The notes: generated by a model not told the origin, from the sequence alone. A stretch of DNA of 64,000 bases from a bacterium (GCA_037137535.1 JBAXKC010000005.1:32001-96000); one strand, 5' to 3'; shown: positions 10,445 through 49,074, counted from the stretch's first letter. Made by a program: numbers and translations.

Positions 10445-10875
10445 ATGAAAGATTTATAGGGCTTGATGTAGGTAATAAGAGAATCGGCGTATCTTTAAGT
10501 GATAGGTTGCTTCTTACTGCTCAGCCCCTAAAGACGATTAATAGAATGCCTGAAGTTAAGGCAATAGAAGAATTGTCAAAAATAATAAAAGAAAACGGAG
10601 TGACAGGTATAGTTGTAGGGCTTCCAAAAAATATGAACGGCTCTATAGGTTTTCAAGCTGATAATGTACAAAATTTTGCAGAACTGCTTGAACAAAGTTT
10701 TAATCTTGATATAATTTTTGAAGATGAAAGATTATCTAGTAGACAAGCGGAAAGGTTTTTATCGGAACAAAACGTAAAACCTTCTCGCAATAAAGGGTTA
10801 ATAGACGTTGCCTCAGCGGCAATAATATTACAATTGTATTTGGACAAAAGGAGAATTCAAAATGGAAGATCTTAA
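10438..10875 (+). CDS. ruvX: YqgF/RuvX pre-16S rRNA nuclease / resolvase-like protein
   Basis: GLDVGNKRIGVSLSD, VVGLPKNMNGS, DERLSS, DVASAAIILQ. Confidence 0.95.
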   Translation: MLDERFIGLDVGNKRIGVSLSDRLLLTAQPLKTINRMPEVKAIEELSKIIKENGVTGIVVGLPKNMNGSIGFQADNVQNFAELLEQSFNLDIIFEDERLSSRQAERFLSEQNVKPSRNKGLIDVASAAIILQLYLDKRRIQNGRS

Positions 10876-11218
10876 CAATATTGAAACAAAAATCATCAGA
10901 ACTCAGGATGAAAATGGCGAAGTTCATAACTTTGAGCTTGTTGATGTTGTAGAAGTAGACGGAAATGAGTATGGTTTATTAGTTTACGTTGATGAAGATG
11001 AAACTGCTGAAACTGAAAAATCAGAAGGTTGTGGATGCAGCAACGAAGAGTGTGGTTGTGAAGAAGAAGAAGAAATTATCATTATGAAATTAAATAAAAG
11101 TGGTGAGTCTTATTCATTCGAAACAATCGAAGACGATGATGAATTCAGCAAAGTTGTTGAATATCTTGAAACAGAATGTGCTGATGATGACGAAGAAGAT
11201 GAAGAAGACGCAGAATAA
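10862..11218 (+). CDS. DUF1292/DUF3727-like acidic protein
   Basis: QDENGE..FELVDVVEVDGNEYGLL, IEDDDEFSKV; usual position downstream of yqgF. Confidence 0.75.
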   Translation: MEDLNNIETKIIRTQDENGEVHNFELVDVVEVDGNEYGLLVYVDEDETAETEKSEGCGCSNEECGCEEEEEIIIMKLNKSGESYSFETIEDDDEFSKVVEYLETECADDDEEDEEDAE

Positions 11219-11234
11219 GTTTCTTTAATCCAAT

Positions 11235-11271
11235 AAATCCCTCCTGAGTTTTAATGATGCAGGAGGGATTT
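11235..11271 (+). terminator. Intrinsic terminator
   Basis: AAATCCCTCCTG...CAGGAGGGATTT followed by GTTTG. Confidence 0.8.
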
Positions 11272-11835: not shown

Positions 11836-11866
11836 TAAAAGCTGCCGATACAAATGGTAGCTTTTT
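11836..11866 (+). terminator. Probable terminator after hemerythrin
   Basis: AAAAGCTGCC...GGTAGCTTTTT stem with U tract. Confidence 0.6.
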
Positions 11867-12097
11867 AGTTTTAGAAGTTGAGAGTTTGTTTTAAGAGAGA
11901 AGTTTAGCTTATGGGAAAAAATTGTTTTTTCAATTCATGTTTCATATTTGAAAATATGCTAAATAGCATGTATTTAAGTGCTTTTGGGCATGTAAACAAT
12001 TGTAAAAAAAAGTATAAATATGAGAGTTTTTTTAACATGTTTTTAATTTATATGACTTTTTATTATTACGATAGAATTTGGGCTGAGGTCATAATTA

Positions 12098-13411
12098 ATG
12101 GTTAGCAAAATAGATAACTCAAAATTGTTTGAAAAATTTGCTTTGAAGCCACAGCAACAGCAAGCTCCTGCTCCTGTGACACAGCAGGCTGAAGTTGTTC
12201 CTGTTCAGGTTCAAAAGGAAATGGAAGGGGTTCAAGCAAAGACTCACGAGCCAAAGCAAGATGAACTTAACATCGGGCATGCATCGGATCACATGGTTTC
12301 TAATGATGCTCTTACAAAAATGAAAGTCCAAGTCGAAAAGACATCAAAGCTACCTGAATACGCTATTAGGGGAATGAAAGGCGATCAGGATGCTAATTTC
12401 TATGAGTTTTTAGAATTAGGTAAAGTTCCTTATTTTCTTGGTGGTGCTGTTTTAACTGCATGTTATGCTGCCGGTGGTAAGGGGGCTGCTCCATTTGTAA
12501 CAAGAATGGGAGCCGGTGCTGCATTTTTCTATACAGCTGCAATGTTAGGAAAGAATGCTATTGCTCTTCCTGTTCAGTTATTAAGAGGTATTGATCTTAA
12601 TCATCCTTACAGAGATATTGTAGATTGTAGAGCAGTAGATGCTCAAGGTACATCTCCGAAAAAGAAAGAATATCACAAAGTATTTGAAAGTATCGACTTT
12701 ACAAGATGGGATCTTCTTGAAAATCATGAAAAAGGAGATGTTAAAAACAACCCAAGGCTTATTAACGCTAAATATGACCGTATCGCTAAGAAAATGGGCA
12801 TAAAAGAAAAAGACCTTAATGACTCAGATAGCACATTAAGAGCTTATATCAAGAAAACACTTGTCATGAGTAAAGCTGCTCAATATATGAGTATAGCTTT
12901 ATTTGCACCACTAGCTATTGGTGTAGCTAATGTTCGTGAAATGGAATCACTTGGTCATAATATGTTTGGAGATATTGCTAAACATCTTGCAAAGCCTAAG
13001 GCTGACGCTACTATTGCCTCAACAACAAAGGATGTGTTCAGTATTATAAAATCTGCTACAACTGATGTTATTGGTAGATCCTTTAAATCACTATGGACAG
13101 GTGAGGGTAATACGCATACTATAAAGGGTGTTAAAAATACAATAGGAAGCGTGAAAACATCTGACCTCTTTAAGCAAATGACAGGTGGAGAGTTCTTCCA
13201 ATCATTAAATGGATTGCTTAAGAAACATGGCGGAAAAGCATTAATCCTTGCTCCGTTAGTAACATCAGTAGCCGCAAACGCATGGATTTACTTCCACACA
13301 AATGCAGGCAAGAAAAAAGTATTACCTGCCGCAGAGTTTGCTATCGATAAGCAAAGACTTGCTGAACAATCAGCTCAAGGGGACAACACTCAACAAGTTA
13401 AGCCACAGTAG
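12098..13411 (+). CDS. Hypothetical membrane protein, paralogue of 13429-16158
   Basis: 437 aa; RBS GAGG; Q/P-rich N-terminus; Gly/Ala-rich hydrophobic helices; C-terminal hydrophobic helix followed by GKKK. Confidence 0.85.
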   Translation: MVSKIDNSKLFEKFALKPQQQQAPAPVTQQAEVVPVQVQKEMEGVQAKTHEPKQDELNIGHASDHMVSNDALTKMKVQVEKTSKLPEYAIRGMKGDQDANFYEFLELGKVPYFLGGAVLTACYAAGGKGAAPFVTRMGAGAAFFYTAAMLGKNAIALPVQLLRGIDLNHPYRDIVDCRAVDAQGTSPKKKEYHKVFESIDFTRWDLLENHEKGDVKNNPRLINAKYDRIAKKMGIKEKDLNDSDSTLRAYIKKTLVMSKAAQYMSIALFAPLAIGVANVREMESLGHNMFGDIAKHLAKPKADATIASTTKDVFSIIKSATTDVIGRSFKSLWTGEGNTHTIKGVKNTIGSVKTSDLFKQMTGGEFFQSLNGLLKKHGGKALILAPLVTSVAANAWIYFHTNAGKKKVLPAAEFAIDKQRLAEQSAQGDNTQQVKPQ

Positions 13412-13428
13412 GGTTAGGGGATATTAAA

Positions 13429-16158
13429 ATGGTTAACATTAATCGAAATCTCACATTTACAAATGCAGACTTGATTAAAAAACAGTTTCAGATGAAGCCG
13501 TCTAATCAGCAAGCTCAACCTGCTCCTGTGGTTGAAAATAGTCCGCAAAAAGCTAATCAGGAATTGATTGCAGATACATTAAAATTAAGAAACGTTGAGC
13601 CTGACAAACCAAAAGGTAAAACATTTAACAGAGGTCTTCTTCAGTGGCCACAAGAAATATATGAAACCAACGTTAAAGGTGCAAAAGTTCTTTGGAAAGC
13701 TATGGCTAAAGGCGAAGGCAACGATAAAGATATCGGAAGCCTTAACGATTTAGCGTTAGGTTTGGGCAGTTTAGGTATTGCTGCTGCTTTAGCACTTAGA
13801 CCTAAGGCTTCCCCTGCCGAAAGAGCTATGGAATTTGCCGGTTTTGGAACATGGTTTGCAGCGCAAGCTATTTGGCCAAAAACTATTCTCGCAGGACCTG
13901 TTAAATTTTTTACCGGTGTAGATATTAATAAAACTTATCAGCATAGTGAAGGCAAAATTAATAGAACGCTTACTGATCCTCAATATATTCCTTGGGATCA
14001 CTATACTCAAAAAGAATATGATGAAGTTGGTAAAAAATGTCATATTCCTGAAAATATCAAAGATAGAAATAAACATGTTCAAAATAAAATCAGACAGGTT
14101 GGCGTTCAGTCAAATACTTTATGGATGCTGACAGCAGGTTTTTCAACTCCGTTAATTTCCAGTTTATTTGCTGATAGATTAAGACCGGCTGTTGCAGGTG
14201 GTCTTGAGATGGTAAATGAAACAAAAAATTCTATGAAGTTATTCGGATTCAAGAAAACACTTCACGATAGAATTGATAGAGCTCTTCAAAATCTTGAACA
14301 TAAGATGATTCCTAACGCTACAGGTAACGGATTAGGTTCTGTGGGTAGAGGTGTTCAAAACTTCTTCATTAGTGCTGATAATATGTTAGGAACTATTAAA
14401 AAGCCTATTTTATCCACAGTTCAACATCTTGTCGGCTATAAGCCTGAAGAAGCATTAAAAGGTTTTGATTCTAAAGCTGAATCTATTTCTAAGAAAACTG
14501 CTGAGCAAATGGAAAAATTACTTGAGTCTAATCCTAATAAAGAGAAAATGACAAGTGAATTAGCAAATATGTTTAAAGATTCTAGTGAATTAGGTTCATT
14601 TAGACATACTGACTTATTTAACAGTATTGTTAAAACTGTATCTTCTAAAATGGATGAAATTCCTGGAAAAGATGCGACTAAACAAGCAGAGCTTAAAAAA
14701 CAAATCGTTAGTGTTGTTTCATCGGCTAAGAAATTTGTTGAGATGGCAAAAGATGTTGAAGGCTATGCTAAAACAACACTCGGTAATTACGCTGATACAA
14801 CTATAGCTCACGCTTGGGATCAAGCTCCTAGAGAAATGATGGATGCTTTAAGACTTCCTAATGCTGTAAGAGTTAAATTACAAAGTGTTAACGGTCAAAC
14901 TCCTAATGGTATAAGTGCAGTTGCTCTTGAAATTTCTGATTATATTCATAAACTTCCTGCTGCTGAAAGAGAAGAAGTTAAAATTGCATTAGATAATGTT
15001 ATTCATAAGCACGATAGTAAGTTATCAGGAATGGCTGAGAGAGTAGGTGTTGTCTTTACTGAAGGAGGAGCTAAAGAGACTGAAAATGGTGTAATGCAAA
15101 AATTAAGAGCATACTCTAAAGACCTTAGCACTCAACTTTATGATAGTGATGATTTTAAAACAGCAAATATTTATATGGATAATCTGAGTAATATGGTCAG
15201 AGATCGTATTATGAATACAAAAAATTCCTTCCATAAAATGCCTGTGTTATTTGAAGCTCATACAAAAGAAGTTGAATTAATTGCTGAGTATAATAAAAAG
15301 AATCCGACTAAAGCTATTGATCTTAAAAATGGCGTGACTAATATAGTAATGGAATTGTCAAGTAAACCTAAGGAAGCACTTAACGATCATGAAAAAACAT
15401 TACTTGAGGGTCTAACTAAATCAATGAAGTTTAAGAGTACTTTTGATCCGCATAACTTAATGACAGTTGACAAAGGTGTAAGTTTAGATGAATTCTTAAA
15501 TAAATGCAGAGCGATTTATGGAAGTAATCCTGCAACAGAAGCTAAAGGCACTATAAATGAGATGTTAAATCAATTATTTGTGTCAATGTATAAAATTGAG
15601 GATACAGGTAAGGATCTCAGTAAATGGACAGAGGCAGCTCTTACTGATTTATTAAAAGGTGATAATCAATTAGCAAAACAATTAAAATCTGCAAGTGGTG
15701 ATGACCTTAAACATATGCTTGAGGCTAATGATCACCAGTTAGAAAAAACGATTAATTCTCATTTGGGTGAATTATTTAATCAAGCTAAGTCAACAATGAC
15801 AGAAAAAGGTTTAATATCACTTACTGAAGATTCAATTAAAGCTATATTTAATGAAACCTTTAATAAAGCGGGTATTGATGTTTCTCATTCGTTAAAAACA
15901 CAAGCATTTATTGAAGAAAAAGCTGATGCTCTTGCTCCAAAACTTAAATCAGCTGGAGCTTGGTTAGGTAAAGCTCTTGATAAATTTATCGCAGATGCAG
16001 CAGGTGAGACTGTACTTTACAGAGGTTGGTTGACAAAAGTCGGTAGTGCATTCGCTGTTCTTACAGGTGTAACATTAATCGCTTCATCAATGATGGGCAA
16101 GAAAAACAAATATAATCCGGGTGTCTATGAGGTAAGGGAGACCAAGAAATATGAATAA
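13429..16158 (+). CDS. Large hypothetical membrane protein with long helical middle, paralogue of 12098-13411
   Basis: 909 aa; RBS AGGGG; hydrophobic segments near aa 105-160, 230-248 and 870-890. Confidence 0.85.
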   Translation: MVNINRNLTFTNADLIKKQFQMKPSNQQAQPAPVVENSPQKANQELIADTLKLRNVEPDKPKGKTFNRGLLQWPQEIYETNVKGAKVLWKAMAKGEGNDKDIGSLNDLALGLGSLGIAAALALRPKASPAERAMEFAGFGTWFAAQAIWPKTILAGPVKFFTGVDINKTYQHSEGKINRTLTDPQYIPWDHYTQKEYDEVGKKCHIPENIKDRNKHVQNKIRQVGVQSNTLWMLTAGFSTPLISSLFADRLRPAVAGGLEMVNETKNSMKLFGFKKTLHDRIDRALQNLEHKMIPNATGNGLGSVGRGVQNFFISADNMLGTIKKPILSTVQHLVGYKPEEALKGFDSKAESISKKTAEQMEKLLESNPNKEKMTSELANMFKDSSELGSFRHTDLFNSIVKTVSSKMDEIPGKDATKQAELKKQIVSVVSSAKKFVEMAKDVEGYAKTTLGNYADTTIAHAWDQAPREMMDALRLPNAVRVKLQSVNGQTPNGISAVALEISDYIHKLPAAEREEVKIALDNVIHKHDSKLSGMAERVGVVFTEGGAKETENGVMQKLRAYSKDLSTQLYDSDDFKTANIYMDNLSNMVRDRIMNTKNSFHKMPVLFEAHTKEVELIAEYNKKNPTKAIDLKNGVTNIVMELSSKPKEALNDHEKTLLEGLTKSMKFKSTFDPHNLMTVDKGVSLDEFLNKCRAIYGSNPATEAKGTINEMLNQLFVSMYKIEDTGKDLSKWTEAALTDLLKGDNQLAKQLKSASGDDLKHMLEANDHQLEKTINSHLGELFNQAKSTMTEKGLISLTEDSIKAIFNETFNKAGIDVSHSLKTQAFIEEKADALAPKLKSAGAWLGKALDKFIADAAGETVLYRGWLTKVGSAFAVLTGVTLIASSMMGKKNKYNPGVYEVRETKKYE

Positions 16159-18118
16159 CGTTCAAAATAACAATAATCAGTTTATTGTAAAACTTCCTTT
16201 GAATAAAACTAATCAGCCGTTACCTCAACAGCCTGTGTATGTTGCTCCTGCGGCTACACATGTGAATCAGCAGCCAAATCAGGTAGTTTATGCAAATAAT
16301 ATTCCTAATATTTTCTTTAAATCACCACAACCTCAAAAAGCTGTTGTTGCTCCACAAGTAGCTCCACAGCAACAAGCTAATACTCAATCAATGTCGTCAG
16401 ATTGGGTTTCAAGTTGGATAAAAGTTAAAATGCCTGCAGCGGCTAATGCTTCAACAGCAGTAGCAAAGGCTGCTCCGGTTCAGAAAATATCTGATGTGAA
16501 ACTTGATCCGAATTTTCATTGGAAAAACGACCTTAGGCAGTTATTCCACGAAAATAAAGCTTGTATTATGGCAGTGTTAATGAATACATTCAATGCTAAA
16601 GATAAAGATGGTGACAGATTAATTCAACCGTCTAAAGGTGAAGAATTCGGCACTTGGTATAATGGTATCGAGCGTCTTGATGAGATGAAAGCATTAGGTA
16701 TTAATACATTACACATTCTTCCTCCAAACCCACCCGGTGCAAAAGGTGCTATGGGGAACAACGGTTCAAGATATGCTGTTGATGATTATACTAAATTAGA
16801 TCCAATGCTTGATGATCCAAAATGTCCTCTTGGCGTGGAAGATGAAGCAAAATTATTCATTCAGGAAGCTCATAAACGTGGTATCAGAGTAATGTTTGAC
16901 CTTGCAAGCTGTTTCTCAATCGATCAGTTTGAAAAATCTGCTGCTAATCAAGATAAAAATCCTGCAACTCCAAAAGTAGCTGTAAATCCTGACGGTACAC
17001 CGGCTATTCCTCAAGGTTGGGAAGACATTAGAATGATGGATCCTTGGGAAGATAAAGATAAGAGAATTTTACACAAAGGCTTGATGGATTATCATAAAAA
17101 ATTCATTGATTTGGCACAAAGAATTGGTGTTGATGGTATCAGAGCTGACGTTGCAAGAGCGAAACCTGTTGAATTCTGGAATGAATTAATTGCATATTCC
17201 AGAAGTAAAGATCCAAACTTCTGCTGGTTAGCTGAAAGCTATTGTTATGAAGATGCCTCACCAATGCAAAACGTACCTGCTGATAGACCTGAAGAGCTGT
17301 TAAAAGTTGGTTTCGATTCATACTATGGTCAAGATCACTTATTCCCATTATGGAAAAACAGTAAAGATTTCCATGACAATATGCTTCTAAACCTTGATCT
17401 TTCACATAAAGTAGGGCCTAATAAGTCTGTAATCGGTTCAATGCATACCCATGATGATAGAAGTCCTATGTCAAACGGTGGCGCTCCATACTGTTGTTTA
17501 ACAGCAGGCGCTCAACTTACATTACCGATGACTAATCCATACTTTACAATCGGTTTTGAATCAGGTGACAGATATTTATATCCATACGATGGCAAGCCTG
17601 TTCAAGGTTGGGCAAGAACAGACTCTAAAACCTATGTAACTCATAGTGAGTTTATCGACATCTTTAATACGTCAGATAAACCGCATGGCGATAATCCTGA
17701 AATCGGCCAATATATGACTGATATGACAAAAGTTAGAAAGCAATATGAAGATGTTATTACCAAAGGTTCTTACATTCCGTTAAAAACTACTAATAAAGAA
17801 GATTTAATTATCGGTTATGCAAGACACTATAACGGTAAAACCTTACTTGCTATTGCTAACAAAGATGTAAATGCTGTTCAGCAAGGAAAAGTGAAAGTAC
17901 CAACTTTAAAAGAAGGACAAGTTCTTAAAGATCTTTCACCTGCTTATGGTGCACCAAGTAATTATGTCGCTAAAAACGGAGAAGTTGACGTAGAACTTGG
18001 ACCAGCTAGATTCCATCTTTTTGAAATTGATACACCTGAAATAGAAAAAGCTGCTGATGGCGTATATTCTCAAAACCTTGATTTATCTATGTATGAACAA
18101 ACTCCAATAAAAGATTAA
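16151..18118 (+). CDS. GH13 alpha-amylase-family glycoside hydrolase with about 115-aa low-complexity N-terminus
   Basis: LGINTLHILP, EAHKRGIRVMFD, GVDGIRADVA (nucleophile), WLAESY (acid/base), MHTHDD; overlaps upstream stop. Confidence 0.9.
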   Translation: MNNVQNNNNQFIVKLPLNKTNQPLPQQPVYVAPAATHVNQQPNQVVYANNIPNIFFKSPQPQKAVVAPQVAPQQQANTQSMSSDWVSSWIKVKMPAAANASTAVAKAAPVQKISDVKLDPNFHWKNDLRQLFHENKACIMAVLMNTFNAKDKDGDRLIQPSKGEEFGTWYNGIERLDEMKALGINTLHILPPNPPGAKGAMGNNGSRYAVDDYTKLDPMLDDPKCPLGVEDEAKLFIQEAHKRGIRVMFDLASCFSIDQFEKSAANQDKNPATPKVAVNPDGTPAIPQGWEDIRMMDPWEDKDKRILHKGLMDYHKKFIDLAQRIGVDGIRADVARAKPVEFWNELIAYSRSKDPNFCWLAESYCYEDASPMQNVPADRPEELLKVGFDSYYGQDHLFPLWKNSKDFHDNMLLNLDLSHKVGPNKSVIGSMHTHDDRSPMSNGGAPYCCLTAGAQLTLPMTNPYFTIGFESGDRYLYPYDGKPVQGWARTDSKTYVTHSEFIDIFNTSDKPHGDNPEIGQYMTDMTKVRKQYEDVITKGSYIPLKTTNKEDLIIGYARHYNGKTLLAIANKDVNAVQQGKVKVPTLKEGQVLKDLSPAYGAPSNYVAKNGEVDVELGPARFHLFEIDTPEIEKAADGVYSQNLDLSMYEQTPIKD

Positions 18119-18144: not shown

Positions 18145-18182
18145 AAAAATCCCTTACATTATTTAAGATGTAAGGGATTTTA
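18145..18182. terminator. Bidirectional intrinsic terminator
   Basis: AAAAATCCCTTACAT...ATGTAAGGGATTTT. Confidence 0.85.
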
Positions 18183-18471: not shown

Positions 18472-20394
18472 TTATGTTAATTTAGCTATTTTTTCCGCTA
18501 GCTGAGCAATTTCCTCACAGTTATCAGCAGAAACATTTATAAGTTTAGTTATTTCAGTCATTTCTTTACCAGCTTCATTCATGTTAGTTTCAAGTTTGTC
18601 TGAAATTTTATTCATTAACTCTACTTGCTTCTGAATTATGGATTCACTAGATTTAGTTGAATCTACAACTTCTTTAGATTGTTCAGAAAGTTTTCTTACT
18701 TCATCCGCTACAATTGCAAAGCCACGTCCATGATCACCCGCACGAGCTGCTTCAATAGAAGCATTAAGTGAGAGTAAATTTGTCATACCTGCTATATTTA
18801 CAATTTCTTTTGATGCTTCAATAAATTCATTAACGCTTTGTTCAACACTATAAATACTATTTTTTAAATCACTTGAGGTTTTAATAAGATTAATTATTTG
18901 TTCTTTTATTTGTTCCGTATTTGCACTATTTTCTTTATTTGAATTAGCGACATTTAATACTTTTTCTATAATCTTATCCACATTTGTTTTAAGAATAGTT
19001 GATGATTCCTCTTTTTCTGCATTAATTTCCTGTAATTCTGCTGTCATTTGTTGTAGTTTACAATTTTGTGCATTTATCATGTCATGTTCTATTTTAAGCT
19101 CTTTTTTATTATAAAATATGCAGTTTTTTAAATGATTAGTATTATTAAATATAGAAAGGGCCATATTTTTACAATTGCCATATCCGCAAGCATTACAGTT
19201 TATGTTTTTATCTTTTTCAGTATATTTATGCAGTTTTATAAATACTTCATTCAATTCGCTTTGATTTGGAATTAATATTTTTACATCAGAAGATTTATTT
19301 TTGTATTTTCTAATAAAATCATTCAAGTCTATTTCTTTGTTAAACATATCAAATAAAGGATAGGTATTTTTATTAAATATATTCTTTGAGCTTTTTTCTT
19401 TGATTTTTTGTTTTTTTGCTAAATTCATTTTATTATCAAGATCATCTATGTGACGATCTTTACATGTCCCTGTCCCCAAATTGCAGCCGAAAGAACAGTT
19501 TAAAATATCTACAATAAGAGGCAAATTTTTATTTTCTTTTACTCTTTTATTATATGAATCAAGGTAACTATATGCATGCTCATTACCTTCTACCTGTCTT
19601 ACCCAGGCATCAGGTATATGGAATTCTACGTTTTCTCTAAGACCACCTGGTCTTGAGAAGGTTAAGCCTAATCCACATCCGATATCATCAAAGTCTGTTT
19701 CTTCATAGCTATTTAGGTTTATATTATTTCTTTTTAAATAATTCTCTATTTTTTTATAGGTAATATTATATGAAATATAACCATTAGTATTGGGATCATT
19801 AAATTCATCTGTTTTTCCAAGACAAGGTGATAAAAAGGCTATGTTATCATTTATTTTTTTATAATTTTTCATGTAAATAGCAGTACAGAGAGCAGGACTA
19901 TGAACAGGTGAGGTTTTTTCGATTAATTCAGGTTTGTATTTTTCTATATAATTAACAATTGCAGGACAAGGCTGTGCAATGACAGAGTCTAAATTTTTAG
20001 TAGTAATCGCTTTGATATAAGCCCATGTACATAGATCAGCACCAAATGACACATCATATATTAAATTTATACCTTTGCTTTTAAAAAATGAAAAAAGTTT
20101 TTTGTAATTGTCAAAATTCAACCTTGCTGCAGGAGCTGCAACAATGGATAATTTTTTACCTTTTTTTAAATCTTCAAAAAATAATTCTGTATCATCATTA
20201 TATCTACGAGCATTATGATCACATTCCTCTATACAATGTCCACAATTTATACATTTATAAGGATCAACTTTAATTTTATTATCGTTGTTTTCGTCTAAAT
20301 AGGCTATATTGGCGTATATTGCAGGACAACCATTTATGCATTTATTGCAACCGACACAATTCTCTTCAATTGTGTAAACAATATTATTCTTCAT
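18472..20394 (-). CDS. Soluble chemoreceptor: 2x[4Fe-4S] + [FeFe]-hydrogenase-like domain + FeS + MCP signalling domain
   Basis: [93 protein letters not shown]. Confidence 0.9.
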
Positions 20395-44043: not shown

Positions 44044-45378
44044 TTATCTTACGCTCATACCTTCATTTAAGTATTTAATCAGTGGGTAAATAAAGAACTC
44101 TATAATTCTTCTTTTTCCAACTTTGATTTCTGCACTTAAACTCATACCTGTTTTGAGATAAACTTTTTTACTTTCAACCATCAACGACTTATCGATAGGT
44201 GTTATGTAAACTTCATAGATAAGTCCTGCTTTCGGGTCTTGAATACTGTCTTCTGAGATGCTTTTTACTTTTCCTTTTAAAATTCCGTACTTTTGGAAAT
44301 CAAAGGTATCAATTTTAAGAGCTACCGGCATTCCTTCATGAATAAAGCCTATATCTCTGTTTTCAGCTGTGGCTTTAATTACAAGAGGAGTGTTTATCGG
44401 AACAATTGACATTAATTTTTCTGCTGACGTTACAACTCCACCAACTGTGTGGACTGAAAGAGTATTAATATAACCATCAACAGGTGAAATAATGCGTTGT
44501 TTAGTATTTTTGTAAGTTGCTTCTTTAATTTGTGAAATAAGATCAGTAGAATTTTTTTGTTTATCAGAAAGTTCTTTTAAATTCTCAGCTTTAAAGTTAG
44601 CTCTAATGTATGATTGCTCTTCTAGTGCCTGATTTCTTTGATGATGTAACTCATCTAATTTGAAATCAGCTTCTTTTATTTGGCTTTGTAGATTTAAAAT
44701 ATCTGAATGGCATTGATCAACTTCATTTTTTGCAATTATATTTATAACTGCATTTAGTCGTCTTTCTTTATCTTTAAGAATAGTTAATTGATTTAAATTA
44801 TTACTTCTTGAAGCTAAAGTAGATTTAATTTGCTCATCAACTTTTTTAAGCTCTAATTCTTTTACATCTAACTGTTTTTGCATACTATCCATAGATGAAT
44901 TGTATAGTTGAGTCTGTGTATTTATTGAATAAACATCAGGTAATTTTTCACCTGTTGCAGTAGGTGGAACAAATCTAACACCTTGAGATGATGCATCTAA
45001 CCTTTGTGATTCTAATTGAATATAATCAAGATTTTTTTTCATTGCATCAAGCCTAGGAGCGGTAGTTGAAGGATCTATTTCCATCAAAATTTGTCCTTTT
45101 TTTACAAAAGAACCCTCTTTTACAAAAATATTAGTTATTACACCAGTATCTAAAGGTTGAATTACTTTAATATTTCCGTCAGGAATTATCTGTCCTCTTG
45201 TTGTTACTACAATGTCAACTTGTCCAAGGACTAACCAGAGTATAGTGCAAACAAATAAGATAACTACTGTCCAAAACATTGTTCTGCCAATAGGGCTTAC
45301 AGGTGCATCTTCTATTTCTAATAAAATAGGCTTAAACTCGTGAGCGTCATCCATTCTCTTAAATAGTTTTTTAAGCAT
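44044..45378 (-). CDS. hlyD: HlyD-family type I secretion membrane fusion protein
   Basis: EFKP..LEI, TM, SPVDG, GGVVT, FDFQKYG, GMSLSAEIKVGKRRIIEFF. Confidence 0.93.
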   Translation of the reverse strand: MLKKLFKRMDDAHEFKPILLEIEDAPVSPIGRTMFWTVVILFVCTILWLVLGQVDIVVTTRGQIIPDGNIKVIQPLDTGVITNIFVKEGSFVKKGQILMEIDPSTTAPRLDAMKKNLDYIQLESQRLDASSQGVRFVPPTATGEKLPDVYSINTQTQLYNSSMDSMQKQLDVKELELKKVDEQIKSTLASRSNNLNQLTILKDKERRLNAVINIIAKNEVDQCHSDILNLQSQIKEADFKLDELHHQRNQALEEQSYIRANFKAENLKELSDKQKNSTDLISQIKEATYKNTKQRIISPVDGYINTLSVHTVGGVVTSAEKLMSIVPINTPLVIKATAENRDIGFIHEGMPVALKIDTFDFQKYGILKGKVKSISEDSIQDPKAGLIYEVYITPIDKSLMVESKKVYLKTGMSLSAEIKVGKRRIIEFFIYPLIKYLNEGMSVR

Positions 45379-47485
45379 TTACCGGCTCCTGTTGTGTGTA
45401 CAATTTATAATAATAGCCTTTTTTATCTATTAATTCCTGATGTGTTCCCATTTCAATTATTTTGCCCTCATCTAAAGCTACAATTAAATCGCAACCGACA
45501 ACAGTAAATAATCTGTGAGCTATAACAAACATAGTTCTGCTGCTTTTAATCTGTCCGATATTATCTTGAATAATTTTTTCTGATTCGTAATCAAGTGCAG
45601 AAGTCGCTTCGTCAAAAATAAGGATTTTAGGATTTGTAATAATAGCTCTCGCTATTGCTATTCTTTGTCTTTGACCGCCGGAAAGAGTTGAACCTCTTTC
45701 ACCGACTAGAGTGTCATAACCTTCAGGTAATTTTCTGATAAAGTCATGTGCTCCTGCAATTTTTGCACATTCAATTATTAATTCAATTGAAGCATCAGGT
45801 TTTGGTAGTGCAATGTTATCTCTTATTGAGCCGCTAAATAAATAATTCTCTTGTAATACTATTCCGATATTATTTCTTAACCATACTGGATTCATGTGTC
45901 TTGTATCGACATCATCAAGATAAACGGCACCTTCATTAGGAATATATAATCTTTGAATAAGTTTTGCGATTGTACTTTTACCGCTTCCGCTTCTTCCTAC
46001 AAATCCGACACTCATTCCAGATTCAACCTTAAGGCTAAAATTATCGATAACATAAGGAGAATTAATATTGTATTTGAATGATAGGTTTTCTATCTTTATT
46101 GATCCATTAATGCTTGGTAATGTAATAGCTTTGCTATTTGTCGATTCAATAGGGGAATTTAAAATATCACCTAATCTGTCAACACCAAGAAGTGCTTGTT
46201 GAAACTCGTTCCATAAACCTACAAGTCTTAAAACAGGACCTGTGAATTGACCGGAGAACATTTGAAACGCAATAAGCTGACCTATACTTAGTTTATTATC
46301 AATTACAAGTTTAACTCCTAGGTATAGAACTATAATTGACATCATTTTTTGAAAAGCTCCACATATTGCTCCAAGCAATACTCCTAAGTTAGCAAGGTTA
46401 AATCCTGATTTAACATAAGCACCTAGGTAATCATCCCATTTTTGTTGCATTGAACCTTCAATTGCAAGAGATTTAACGGTTTGAACTCCTGTAACAGACT
46501 CAACTAAATAGGAGTTTGATTGAGCTCCCATTTGAAATTTTTCGTTTAATCTGTTTCTAAGTTCAGGCGTAACTGTAACATAAAGTAATGCTAATAACGC
46601 CACAAATATTATAACTACCACAGATAGCTTAACACTATATAGAACCATAAATACAACGAATATTAATGAGAAGAATACGTCAATGATTACTGATACAGCT
46701 TTACTGCATATAAAAGATCGAATATTTTCTAATTCTCTTATTCTTTCAATAATATTTCCGACTTTTCTCGATTCAAAATACATAAATGGTAAACCAAATA
46801 GATGTTTGAATAATTTTGAACCCAATTTTGCATCAATTTTGCTGACTGTGTGAATAAAGATATAATTTCTTGAAATATTAAGAACAAGTTCAAATAGTGC
46901 AGTTCCGATAAAAGCTGCCGCTAATACGTCTAAAGTAAGCATACTTCTATGAACAATTACTTTATCCATAATTACTTGAGTAAATAAAGGTGTTACGAGT
47001 CCAAAAAGCTGAACAATAAACGAACCTATTAAAACTTCTGCTATAACACGTTTATACTTTAAAATTTCGACAAAAAACCACTTGAAACCAAATCGAATGC
47101 TTTCTGACAACATTTTATGAAAAACTGCAATATATTCAAAAGAAAGTTCATCTATTTGTTCAAAAGTAAGTTCTTGGGTTACATTTGTATCACTGGCAGG
47201 TATATAAAGTAATGCTTTTTCTTCTGCTTTTTTGTCTTTTAACACAACTCCGAAAGTATTATCTTTAAAGACTATTACAGCAGGTAACGGGTAATTTTCT
47301 ATAAATTGACTTATAGGTATTTTTTTTAATTTAGCTTTAAATCCATACCTTTTAATGATTTGAAGTAATTGTGCCTTAGATAATTCACTTTCATCTAAAC
47401 AAAATTCTCTCACTATTGATCGTAGATCTACACTCATTCTACTTAATTTAGCAATAATTTCGAAACATAAGAGAGCAGTTTGCAT
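45371..47485 (-). CDS. hlyB: HlyB-family type I secretion ABC transporter with C39-like domain
   Basis: FGFKWF, PLFTQVIMDKV, GRSGSGKST, LSGGQRQR, FDEATSALD. Confidence 0.93.
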   Translation of the reverse strand: MQTALLCFEIIAKLSRMSVDLRSIVREFCLDESELSKAQLLQIIKRYGFKAKLKKIPISQFIENYPLPAVIVFKDNTFGVVLKDKKAEEKALLYIPASDTNVTQELTFEQIDELSFEYIAVFHKMLSESIRFGFKWFFVEILKYKRVIAEVLIGSFIVQLFGLVTPLFTQVIMDKVIVHRSMLTLDVLAAAFIGTALFELVLNISRNYIFIHTVSKIDAKLGSKLFKHLFGLPFMYFESRKVGNIIERIRELENIRSFICSKAVSVIIDVFFSLIFVVFMVLYSVKLSVVVIIFVALLALLYVTVTPELRNRLNEKFQMGAQSNSYLVESVTGVQTVKSLAIEGSMQQKWDDYLGAYVKSGFNLANLGVLLGAICGAFQKMMSIIVLYLGVKLVIDNKLSIGQLIAFQMFSGQFTGPVLRLVGLWNEFQQALLGVDRLGDILNSPIESTNSKAITLPSINGSIKIENLSFKYNINSPYVIDNFSLKVESGMSVGFVGRSGSGKSTIAKLIQRLYIPNEGAVYLDDVDTRHMNPVWLRNNIGIVLQENYLFSGSIRDNIALPKPDASIELIIECAKIAGAHDFIRKLPEGYDTLVGERGSTLSGGQRQRIAIARAIITNPKILIFDEATSALDYESEKIIQDNIGQIKSSRTMFVIAHRLFTVVGCDLIVALDEGKIIEMGTHQELIDKKGYYYKLYTQQEPVNA

Positions 47486-47745
47486 TAATATTCAACCCCA
47501 AATATAAATGATTTCAATAAATTTCATATCAAGCATTAATAGATTTATAAAAATTAAAAAATTTATTAAATTCTGATAGAACTATAAAATCTTAGCATGA
47601 AGACTTAGCCTCATCAATAAAGCCTACTACTTATACAGTATTTATATGACCGTTATTTTTTTATGGAGTCAATCTTTTATATGAATTTTTTTAACAACTT
47701 GTCGGATAAATAAAAAATTAAAAAATTATGATTTATAATATTATT

Positions 47746-49074
47746 ATGAAAAAGAAATTTAATTTATCAATTGGATTAATTTGTGCAATGTTGCTGGCAA
47801 CCGGCAACTTTGCTAAAGCTGAAACAATTACTTTTGACAACGTTTATGATAAGACAAAAACTTATTCACAAGAGCTTAAAATTTCAAACATTGAAATAGG
47901 AATAAGCAAAACTGAATTAAAAAGTGCTAAAGCCGATTATTATCCAACTTTGACGGCTGGATCTTATGCTGAATACACAAGAGATTTAACAAAAAAAACA
48001 GGCGGTAGCGGAGGCTCTTCAATTTCTTCTGTTGGCTCAAGTGTTGTTTCCTCTGCTTCACAATATCAAAATCTTTTAAATATTAACCTATCTTATAATT
48101 TATTTGATTTTGGGGTAATCCATAAAAAAGTAGTTATGGCAAAAAAGGATGTAGAAGAAAAAAATATTCTATATAAACAAAGCCTTGTTGATTTGAAAAT
48201 GAAATTGCTTGACGTATATACGAAGGGTTTAATTTTAAATAAAAGCATAAAAGCGTTAAATCAAATGTTACCAGTTGCCCAATCACTATATGATATGAAA
48301 CAAGAACTTTATAAAGAGGGATTTGCTTCTAAATTACAAGTTTCTGATGAATCTATTAATGTAATGAAGCTTAAAAATGAAATATTGGATAATCAAATTG
48401 AATTCAAAAAAGTATTAACTGATCTTTCATCATATACACATGAAAATTATGATATTGAAAATACTGAATTGTCTGATTTTGATAATCAAGATTATATTGT
48501 TCCTATTGCAAATAAAAGTAATAGGCAAAACTTAAAGTATAAAGTTTATCAACTAGAAATTGAAAAGAAAAAAGCTGAGTTAGAATCAATGAAAAGACAG
48601 AAATTACCAAATATAAAGCTATATACCAGTTTTGGATTATATGGTGCAGATAGAAGTGACTTTTTAAAATCAGTAAATAATATTGGTACAAGAAATCTTA
48701 CTGCGGGCATTTCAGCATCTTTACCGTTATTTGACGGATTTAAAAACTCTGCAAATTGCGACAGATTAAAAATGGAGCTTAAAAAACTTCAATTACAAAA
48801 AGAACAGGCTGAGGAAGATTATAATTCAAGTCTTGATAAATTAACTGAAAGTTTATCTTCTTATAAAGAAGAAAAGAAAAACTATGATATTTTACTAGGT
48901 GAAGTAAGCGAAAAACTTGCTATGCTTAATCAATTATCACAAGAAAAACTGACTGATAAAGCATCTGTTGAGAAGCAAAAGCAAGAGTTAATCAAACAAA
49001 AGCTGGAATATGAAAAAAATAGAATTATAATAGCCTCTTCAATTAGAAAAATTGAAACTTTATTAGGCACTTAG
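47746..49074 (+). CDS. tolC: TolC-family outer membrane efflux protein
   Basis: Signal peptide MKKKF...AKA; AKADYYPTL, SYNLFDFG, SLPLFDGF; divergent from hlyBD. Confidence 0.85.
   Translation: MKKKFNLSIGLICAMLLATGNFAKAETITFDNVYDKTKTYSQELKISNIEIGISKTELKSAKADYYPTLTAGSYAEYTRDLTKKTGGSGGSSISSVGSSVVSSASQYQNLLNINLSYNLFDFGVIHKKVVMAKKDVEEKNILYKQSLVDLKMKLLDVYTKGLILNKSIKALNQMLPVAQSLYDMKQELYKEGFASKLQVSDESINVMKLKNEILDNQIEFKKVLTDLSSYTHENYDIENTELSDFDNQDYIVPIANKSNRQNLKYKVYQLEIEKKKAELESMKRQKLPNIKLYTSFGLYGADRSDFLKSVNNIGTRNLTAGISASLPLFDGFKNSANCDRLKMELKKLQLQKEQAEEDYNSSLDKLTESLSSYKEEKKNYDILLGEVSEKLAMLNQLSQEKLTDKASVEKQKQELIKQKLEYEKNRIIIASSIRKIETLLGT

Follow-up and report, generated by a model that had tools for sequence, protein, structure and literature searches.

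A conserved operon of Vampirovibrionia encoding two paralogous membrane proteins and a divergent GH13 enzyme

The operon considered here lies in a bacterial genome of 2.95 Mb (81 contigs, rated 100% complete), within the stretch GCA_037137535.1 JBAXKC010000005.1:32001-96000 (G000:C5:32001-96000). This whole stretch of 64,000 nucleotides (nt) is called the window, and positions are counted from its first letter. The first open reading frame (ORF), P1 (12098..13411, + strand, 437 aa), encodes a small membrane protein. Its family is undescribed and confined to Vampirovibrionia, a non-photosynthetic group that is sister to the cyanobacteria and includes common gut bacteria. The second, P2 (13429..16158, +, 909 aa), encodes a large paralogue with a shared module, a long variable helical region, a C-terminal hydrophobic helix and a conserved tail. 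The third, P3 (16151..18118, +, 655 aa), encodes an enzyme of glycoside hydrolase family 13 (GH13).

P1 and P2 are separated by 17 nt, P2 and P3 overlap by 8 nt (ATGAATAA), and an intrinsic terminator (18146..18181, +) with a 15-bp stem between an A-run and a U-run stands behind P3. Its folding energy is -21.8 kcal/mol (z -4.58), and 0 of 200 shuffled sequences fold as well. ORFs, spacing and fold all agree with the tight coupling and the single strong terminator described in an earlier note, which a model had made from the sequence alone. Sequences resembling ribosome-binding sites can be read ahead of both downstream genes: AGGGGA (13416..13421, +), 7 nt ahead of the P2 ATG, and AGGGAG (16135..16140, +), within the end of P2 and 10 nt ahead of the P3 start. 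Upstream of P1, the intergenic region 11866..12097 (+) is presumed to hold the promoter; it extends from a terminator-like hairpin (11837-11865), closing the preceding hemerythrin-domain gene, to the P1 start. A consensus promoter scan gave 30 sites against a shuffled mean of 28.8, i.e. no excess.

P1 and P2 are paralogues on the evidence of their alignments. By BLASTP, residues 7-272 of P1 align with residues 12-242 of P2 at 21% identity over 271 columns (E 5e-6, a single comparison). Alignment of the two families by hhalign gives a probability of 97.7 and E 1.5e-12 over 184 columns, residues 58-275 of P1 corresponding to residues 57-244 of P2. The family alignments comprise 20 P1 sequences (A1) and 19 P2 sequences (A2), both from genomes of the same order, and a further alignment (A3) comprises 59 shared modules. 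Both comparisons, which the earlier note had proposed, are significant, and the four motif pairs that it had quoted for a collinear shared domain all stand in register in the BLASTP alignment. P1 proteins of other orders are devoid of two insertions and are more P2-like than those of the same order; of the 20 distant P1 orthologues, 18 also match the P2 profile (E <= 1e-3).

The shared module, about 200 residues long, is located at 12269..12922 (+) in P1 (residues 58-275; delimited by hhalign and alignments A1 and A3) and at 13597..14160 (+) in P2 (residues 57-244; hhalign and A3). It has four parts: juxtamembrane helices, a Gly/Ala-rich helix hairpin, a conserved loop and a third hydrophobic helix. 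The loop consists of G[VI]D[LI]N..Y followed by an aromatic/acidic motif, FESxDFTRWDL in P1 and QDPQYIPWDL in P2. Behind the module, a helical stretch of about 100 residues (P1) or 250-620 residues (P2) leads to a fourth hydrophobic helix and a basic tail. In P1 this last helix (13235..13294, +, residues 380-399; hydropathy 1.67 over 19 residues) is followed by GKKK and is enclosed in helix 364-401 of the structural model. In P2 it was located by hydropathy (16027..16089, +, residues 867-887); it is followed by GKKNKYNPGVYE, a motif conserved in A2, and serves as the attachment point of GH13 in fused orthologues. P1 and P2 are predicted to be helical membrane proteins with four hydrophobic helices each. 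The AlphaFold2 model of P1 (pLDDT 70.4, pTM 0.63) contains helices 110-124, 128-163 and 243-277 and strands 170-176 and 188-194. The Gly/Ala-rich hairpin ahead of the shared part and the late helix with its GKK were found where the earlier note had placed them; contrary to its statement, the proteins do not end there, and 38 (P1) and 18 (P2) residues lie beyond.

The N-termini of all three proteins are rich in Q, P and N, as had been noted. Those of P1 (12116-12190) and P2 (13462-13536) are alike in this genome (NSKLFEKFALKPQQQQAPAPV and NADLIKKQFQMKPSNQQAQPAPV) and fall within the BLASTP alignment, and the N-termini of their orthologues differ; this likeness may reflect a recent exchange between the genes or an effect of composition. 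At the start of the second hydrophobic helix (P1 about 134-136, P2 about 134-135 in A3), P1 has Lys or Arg and most P2 proteins have Glu, sometimes His, within the motif MEF.G or GEF.G. Lys/Arg and Glu at equivalent columns of A3 could form a charge pair between the P1 and P2 subunits.

P3 begins with an extension (16151..16519, +, residues 1-123) which, by composition and hydropathy, is rich in Q, P, N and A and includes no segment resembling a signal peptide. The GH13 catalytic core and the C-terminal beta domain follow (16520..18118, +), with R331, D333, E362, H434 and D435/D436 in conserved regions II to IV. The protein matches PF00128 at E 5.3e-8 (33 bits, cut-off 22), and the GH13-bearing members of alignment A4 match the GH13 model at E up to 0.01 in 36 of 36 cases. 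R331, D333, E362 and D436 are invariant in 29 unfused orthologues (alignment A5). The motifs kept in the family are DG.R.DVAR, LAE[ST]Y and THDD, and two alignment sequences read TPYD in region IV. Region I reads VMxDxPSCAS, in which the Asp is kept and the Asn-His of the canonical Asp-x-x-x-Asn-His pattern is absent. Since the region I His is not invariant across the GH13 clan, this atypical region would mark a divergent subfamily and does not exclude the protein from GH13.

In a profile search of the PDB, the P3 family was matched by AmyB of Thermotoga neapolitana (4gkl, 'noncanonic maltogenic alpha-amylase') at E 2.3e-33, by the Lactobacillus plantarum amylase 3dhu at E 4.9e-28, by the Thermotoga maritima maltosyltransferase 1gju at E 2.3e-27 and by GlgE maltosyltransferases at E 1.2e-20. 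The (beta/alpha)8 barrel and the C-terminal beta domain are present in the model of a fused orthologue (pLDDT 89). The best Foldseek matches include all four entries: 4gkl (E 1e-20, target-normalised TM-score 0.82) and 3dhu lead, GlgE follows, and 1gju stands at rank 25. Identity to these relatives is about 20% only. By their titles, the solved relatives are enzymes handling maltose units of alpha-1,4-glucans; AmyB, the maltosyltransferase and GlgE are intracellular. GlgE itself is a weaker profile match than AmyB: no GlgE model of NCBIfam appears among P3 families at E up to 1, PF21702 (GLGE_C) is touched by 1 of 49 members (E 0.0037), and no NCBIfam equivalog was reached for P3. From its residues and profile matches, P3 is a divergent GH13 enzyme that keeps the catalytic Asp/Glu/Asp and Arg, closest to AmyB, the Thermotoga maltosyltransferase and GlgE. 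All these enzymes share with P3 the catalytic-domain fold and the catalytic residues of GH13; P3 proteins differ from 4gkl, 3dhu, 1gju and GlgE in a low-complexity N-terminal extension of 61-168 residues or a membrane fusion, and in their region I. We know of no solved enzyme of this set with such membrane partners.

The absence of an export signal is a family trait. A membrane-type window (19 residues, hydropathy >= 1.6) was found in 0 of the 29 unfused orthologues, and an RR.hh twin-arginine-like motif within the first 40 residues also in 0 of 29; one of them has a 12-residue stretch of hydropathy >= 2.0 in the extension. The description of the amylase as leaderless was borne out, P3 having no membrane-type hydrophobic segment at all. 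An extension of 61-168 residues ahead of the core, rich in P, Q, N and A, is present in 29 of 29 unfused orthologues. A second, shorter GH13 paralogue without this extension is encoded elsewhere in the genome (527 aa, G000:C8:49722-51305, i.e. L065:1726-3306, -). Such a second copy was seen in nearly all sampled genomes of family f3, and the two neighbours of the 527-aa gene had no Pfam match.

The physical link between enzyme and membrane protein is given by gene fusions. In 7 of 20 distant loci, P2 and GH13 form a single open frame of 986-1101 aa (L044, L046, L050, L051, L052, L056 and L060; six from family f18 and one from f14). Three genomes carry one fused and one unfused set, and in genome G203 a 1106-aa frame lies at the GH13 match. 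A search for related loci with one fused protein as the query returned 2 loci. The enzyme starts about 25-120 residues past the fourth hydrophobic helix, and the linker KNKYGASSYEV of the fused proteins resembles the conserved tail of unfused P2 (GKKNKYNPGVYE in the window). The fusion is the decisive observation of this analysis and shows enzyme and membrane protein to work as one unit. It also fits an alternative that the earlier note had offered, namely an anchor or membrane scaffold.

In the AlphaFold2 model of the L052 fusion (pLDDT 89.0, pTM 0.70), the third hydrophobic segment is part of a 64-residue helix (161-224) which continues into a helical bundle (226-427). The fourth is part of helix 431-472, which is followed by a short low-confidence linker and then by GH13. 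This layout would place the bundle on one side of the membrane and the N-terminal part, the conserved loop and the enzyme on the other. A complex of P1 and P2 was predicted with a score of 0.51, graded 'weak support', the best of 3 controls scoring 0.00. In calibration, 116 of 157 solved complexes came up to this mark, as did 2 of 215 mismatched pairs; scores <= 0.60 comprise only 18 of the 157 solved complexes and both passing mismatches. Runs agree in at least 54% of contacts, and partner pLDDT is at least 61; purpose-built alignments were used for P1 and P2, so the calibration counts hold roughly.

The three genes are conserved as a set. Of 41 genomes in the same order, the window's own included, 30 have P1; among those of high quality the count is 22 of 28. 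The order P1-P2-GH13 on one strand is kept in 19 of 20 fetched loci of this order and in 20 of 20 loci of other orders, that is in 39 of 40 altogether, which bears out both the claim that the genes form a unit and the conserved GH13 linkage sought in Vampirovibrionia. The exception, L028 (genome G006), has a P1-like ORF of 631 aa behind which the contig stops after 135 nt. One of the other-order loci comes from a record labelled Vampirovibrionales by its depositor. In L025 (genome G039, rated 83% complete), P2 and GH13 are each split in two ORFs, which may be due to frameshifts or sequencing errors.

The same association is seen across the class. In a sample of 201 genomes, the P1 profile was found in 80 and the GH13 family profile (E up to 1e-60) in 81; outside the order, both profiles pick out the same 32 genomes. 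The additional GH13 genome, G024, has only the shorter enzyme paralogue. By family, P1 and GH13 are present in 47/48 and 48/48 genomes of f3, respectively, and in identical numbers in f11 (2/2 each), f14 (6/19 each), f18 (19/25 each) and f20 (5/5 each). Neither was found in f12 (0/47 for both), f13 (0/30), f15 (0/9), f16 (0/12), f17 (0/2) or f19 (0/1).

P1 and P2 have no counterpart among described families. The window's P1 and P2 matched no Pfam family. Among 33 P1 family members no consistent Pfam family was detected, four isolated single-member matches (E 0.006-0.04) being all that appeared, and 20 P2 or fused members likewise gave isolated single-member matches only. In NCBIfam, P1 had no match and P2 had one at E 0.5, far under the cut-off. 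A sequence-profile search of the PDB with A1 retrieved nothing, and with A2 only designed or coiled-coil helical proteins. The P1 model had no Foldseek match in the PDB at E up to 1e-3. In a VIA-align comparison with 48,161 chains, the highest Z was 5.7; it fell on generic helix bundles and does not rise above the stated noise for helical models. In the ESM Atlas, P1 led only to unnamed Melainabacteria clusters, and the middle region of P2 gave no usable feature match and structure rows of TM-score <= 0.31. No confident match to a known housekeeping membrane family was found in the Pfam, NCBIfam and PDB searches.

The family itself is well populated. P1 has at least 184 homologues, all named hypothetical proteins of Melainabacteria or Gastranaerophilales. 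A word-based search with P2 returned 3 proteins only, and synteny and profile searches show its family to be larger. The profile of the shared module, run against 1.84 billion proteins, retrieved 530 cluster representatives with E <= 1e-3, of which 417 reach E <= 1e-30; the best 150 of the 530 comprise 128 P2-like, 21 P1-like and 1 fused protein. Judged by these matches, the proteins with the shared module are a compact family, whose marks, the module and an adjacent small/large pair upstream of GH13, were both found. Full-text literature searches on Melainabacteria, Gastranaerophilales or Vampirovibrionia together with amylase, GH13 or glycogen returned no description of the module. In passages of PMC3787301, an alpha-amylase is merely named as one of the predicted enzymes. 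P1/P2 are a new family and the GH13 enzyme is a divergent member of a known one; among carbohydrate enzymes associated with membranes, the combination of two paralogous membrane proteins with a GH13 that is docked on them or fused is a new arrangement.

Genes of glucan metabolism are often found near the module. A giant GH13-like gene (>1100 aa) flanks it in 18 of 40 loci (7/20 in the order, 11/20 in other orders), and in 6 of 20 distant loci the flanks that were fetched contain a starch-synthase-like gene of family GT5 encoding 730-990 aa. In the genome considered here, a 1508-aa GH13-like gene is located about 32 kb upstream on the same contig (G000:C5:7495-12021; L064:496-5019, +); in its product, a GH13 barrel segment (residues 235-323) is the sole domain recognised. 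Contig 4 carries the gene for a starch-synthase-like GT5 protein of 850 aa that includes long additional regions (G000:C4:98089-100641; L063:593-3142, -), and the genome also has a canonical glycogen synthase (C7) and a phosphorylase-like gene. When the class was searched with the large GT5 alone, 2 of 201 genomes matched (E <= 1e-20). Only 4 candidates were scored in each genome, and the count is uninformative on co-distribution. The neighbours indicate that the module belongs to alpha-glucan metabolism.

The operon is also represented in RNA. Two small metatranscriptome libraries (X2 and X4) come from one freshwater sample, the probable source of this DNA. Their contigs span 12072-18051 and cross both gene junctions: 12963-15261 and 15251-18051 in X2, 13281-13644 and 16042-16423 in X4. 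This is consistent with transcription of the three-gene unit in situ. The contigs give no expression level and, being from the same sample, are not independent of the assembly; their depth cannot rank genes, and stretches without a contig (e.g. 11269-11735 and 18274-19674) are unusable as evidence. The highest contig depth in the stretch compared with the libraries, 23.5 (X2), lies at 10756-11251, over the upstream DUF1292 gene, and is a pointer only. Codon choice typical of highly expressed genes, claimed earlier by eye, holds for P1 (91st percentile) and P3 (88th) and fails for P2 (47th). The measure used was the share of codons ending in C among those of Phe, Tyr, Asn, Ile, His and Asp, ranked among 2245 crude ORFs; this share is 0.31-0.33 in the operon, compared with 0.45-0.59 in the top genes.

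Taken together, the operon probably encodes a membrane complex peculiar to this lineage, by which a GH13 enzyme active on alpha-glucan is tethered to the inner membrane. P1 and P2 would pair via the shared module into an eight-helix core, and the last helix of P2 with its conserved tail would keep the enzyme at the membrane surface. In the fused forms this link is covalent; here it would be non-covalent, probably through the P2 tail and the flexible N-terminal extension of P3. The enzyme is quite likely to lie on the cytoplasmic face, a location that is derived from the lack of an export signal in the unfused forms. The variable helical bundle of P2 would then point toward the periplasm, and the conserved aromatic/acidic loop of the membrane core would lie on the enzyme's side. 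More speculatively, the conserved loop and the conserved polar residues of the helices hint at a role for the core beyond anchoring. Possibly, although this part is put forward tentatively, the enzyme acts at the membrane, where it cuts malto-oligosyl units of alpha-1,4-glucan or transfers them, and the core hands the glucan or oligosaccharide across or along the membrane. The module could be part of a second alpha-glucan pathway together with the giant GH13-like protein and the large starch-synthase-like glycosyltransferase.

Several points weigh against this tethered-enzyme reading. P1 and P2 match neither a known family nor a solved fold. Their hydrophobic segments are of moderate hydropathy only (1.3-1.9 Kyte-Doolittle), and the support for their pairing is graded weak. 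The assignment of membrane sides depends on the missing export signal in unfused enzymes: Lys+Arg counts beside the helices favour the topology with a cytoplasmic enzyme only slightly (7.8 vs 6.1 for P1, 9.6 vs 6.6 for P2), and the last helix is basic on both flanks. The atypical region I, devoid of Asn-His, makes the substrate unreadable from sequence. Glycogen gene clusters often combine synthetic and degradative enzymes, so that the neighbours are silent on the direction of the reaction. Finally, the RNA contigs come from one sample; from contigs, neither the strand nor the ends of a transcript nor its unity can be read, and an RNA library may contain DNA.

A more far-reaching version of the tethered-enzyme reading would make P1/P2 a novel polysaccharide conduit, an eight-helix heterodimer with a helical periplasmic stalk that moves alpha-1,4-glucan or malto-oligosaccharides through the inner membrane with the help of a docked or fused GH13 transglycosylase. 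This is regarded as a speculative and on balance unlikely form of it. A working model could be found in OpgH, cyclic beta-glucan synthase and BcsA-BcsB, in which an enzyme at the cytoplasmic face is combined with membrane helices and a periplasmic partner domain. These are GT2/GT84 glycosyltransferases making beta-glucans; no sequence or fold relation between them and the module was found, and the passage of glucan through the latter is conjecture. If true, the conduit would be an alpha-glucan export or import machine built around an enzyme of a glycoside hydrolase family, not around a membrane-embedded glycosyltransferase or an ABC transporter. As a polysaccharide transporter it would then be of a new type, and it could serve as a model for the export of alpha-glucan elsewhere; to our knowledge, steps of alpha-glucan export are still unassigned in other bacteria.

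The strongest alternative is that P1/P2 only anchor. They would fix the enzyme, and thereby glycogen granules, to the cytoplasmic membrane, and nothing would cross it; this corresponds to the scaffold for glucan granules suggested in the earlier note. The P2-GH13 fusions, the cytoplasm-type enzyme and the glycogen-type neighbours all accord with this, and the long variable helical region of P2 could act as a scaffold. For anchoring, however, one helix would suffice, and yet two four-helix paralogues with a strongly conserved loop are kept across the class, as are Pro, Gly, Glu, Asn and Thr within the helices. In the fusion model, moreover, the variable helical region is predicted between two membrane helices on the side opposite the enzyme. 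Anchoring alone is considered a possible but rather unlikely account of the pair; if correct, it would still be a new way to organise glycogen metabolism at the membrane.

The enzyme could also face outward, the last helix of P2 acting as a signal anchor, GH13 working in the periplasm on imported starch fragments and P1/P2 serving as the importer. The order helix-then-GH13 of the fused forms is the same as in SLC3 heavy chains (rBAT, 4F2hc), whose extracellular, catalytically dead GH13-like ectodomain has a 12-helix APC-type permease as its partner. The likeness lies in a GH13-type domain behind a membrane helix that works with a multi-pass membrane protein. The module differs in keeping the catalytic residues, in an enzyme that is probably cytoplasmic and in having two four-helix proteins as partners; Pfam scans detected no permease family in P1 or P2, and features of the SLC3/SLC7 type were not found. 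The helix has basic residues on either flank, which makes charge no guide to the side of the enzyme, and many members come, by source names, from guts, where starch is abundant. Set against this are the unfused enzymes, 0 of 29 having an export signal or membrane helix, and the nearest solved relatives, which are AmyB, the maltosyltransferase and GlgE and not secreted amylases. The neighbouring GT5 synthase would, as is general for GT5, draw on cytoplasmic sugar nucleotides. An outward-facing enzyme is considered improbable.

A further explanation, a sensor-controlled enzyme, is still harder to sustain. The P2 bundle would sense a periplasmic or envelope signal and switch the cytoplasmic GH13, much as membrane sensors govern their output domains, for which the modelled layout offers a route, as helices 161-224 and 431-472 are predicted to run straight into the bundle and the enzyme follows the fourth helix. 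The bundle, however, is little conserved and its length ranges from about 250 to 620 residues, no match to a sensor or HAMP family was obtained, the enzyme is a separate protein in most lineages, and the role of P1 would be left unexplained. We consider it quite unlikely that the module works in this way.

The earlier note had favoured an export or effector module, in which P1/P2 are a type III-secreted, translocator-like pore pair delivering the leaderless amylase outside or into a target cell. Type III translocator pairs (YopB/YopD, IpaB/IpaC) likewise consist of an adjacent smaller and larger gene, with a hydrophobic hairpin in each product and helical regions, and P1/P2 add disordered N-termini to the small and large pair with hairpins. 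The genome has two full-length FlhA/SctV-type (FHIPEP) genes (C3:65045-67045 and C13:1506-3485, both off the operon's contig), and every family with the module has such a gene. FHIPEP is found in 152 of 201 genomes, including every family with the module (families, not every genome, being counted here) and the module-free families f13, f15 and f16, in which FlhA-type genes are equally common (29/30, 9/9 and 12/12, respectively). Many genomes of the class have two FHIPEP matches. In this one, another four ORFs (467-599 aa; on C2, C34, C27 and C60) match the C-terminal part of FHIPEP only.

The translocator families (SseC/YopB, IpaB, IpaC/SipC, YopD, EspB) were found in none of 33 P1 members at E up to 0.1 and in none of 20 P2 or fused members at E up to 0.01; hmmscan of the window's own P1 and P2 against all of Pfam gave no such match at E up to 1, and the best match to PF04888 in the whole genome had E 0.5, below the cut-off. 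No chaperone, injectisome or other secretion gene stands beside P1-P2-GH13. P2 has four hydrophobic helices where translocators have one or two, the two proteins are paralogous, and in 7 loci P2 runs into a whole enzyme; a four-helix protein with a 500-residue enzyme is unlike a secreted pore-former. With no family match and no adjacent apparatus, the type III analogy finds no support, nor does the exported effector, whose nearest solved relatives are intracellular glucan enzymes, and a secretion role for the operon is highly improbable. A secretion system for the enzyme was rejected as a candidate, given the four-helix P2 fused to GH13, the lack of a translocator family and the lack of apparatus genes nearby.

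The operon is of interest as an unnamed membrane family without a domain model or a solved relative that is always kept with a particular GH13 enzyme in several orders of Vampirovibrionia. The fusions provide a concrete handle on the function of both enzyme and membrane protein. For annotation, two 'hypothetical proteins' and a generic 'alpha-amylase' become a defined and testable three-part module.

The rest of the window is ordinary chromosome, with genes for DnaB, DapB, Asd, DapA, Tgt, MnmA and PolA. TolC-like, HlyD-like and SLH-domain genes in it point to a cell with an outer membrane. The operon's neighbours are genes for a hemerythrin-domain protein, a DUF1292 protein, a YqgF-like ORF, a HEAT-repeat protein and a hydrogenase-like chemoreceptor. 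The last of these (18472-20394, -, 640 aa), convergent with the operon, combines 4Fe-4S ferredoxin, iron-only hydrogenase large-subunit and methyl-accepting chemotaxis signalling domains and is a candidate redox- or hydrogen-sensing chemoreceptor. Farther downstream, at 44044-49074, an ABC exporter that includes a C39 peptidase domain is grouped with an HlyD-like adaptor and an outer-membrane efflux protein; this gene set looks like type I export of a peptide or bacteriocin.

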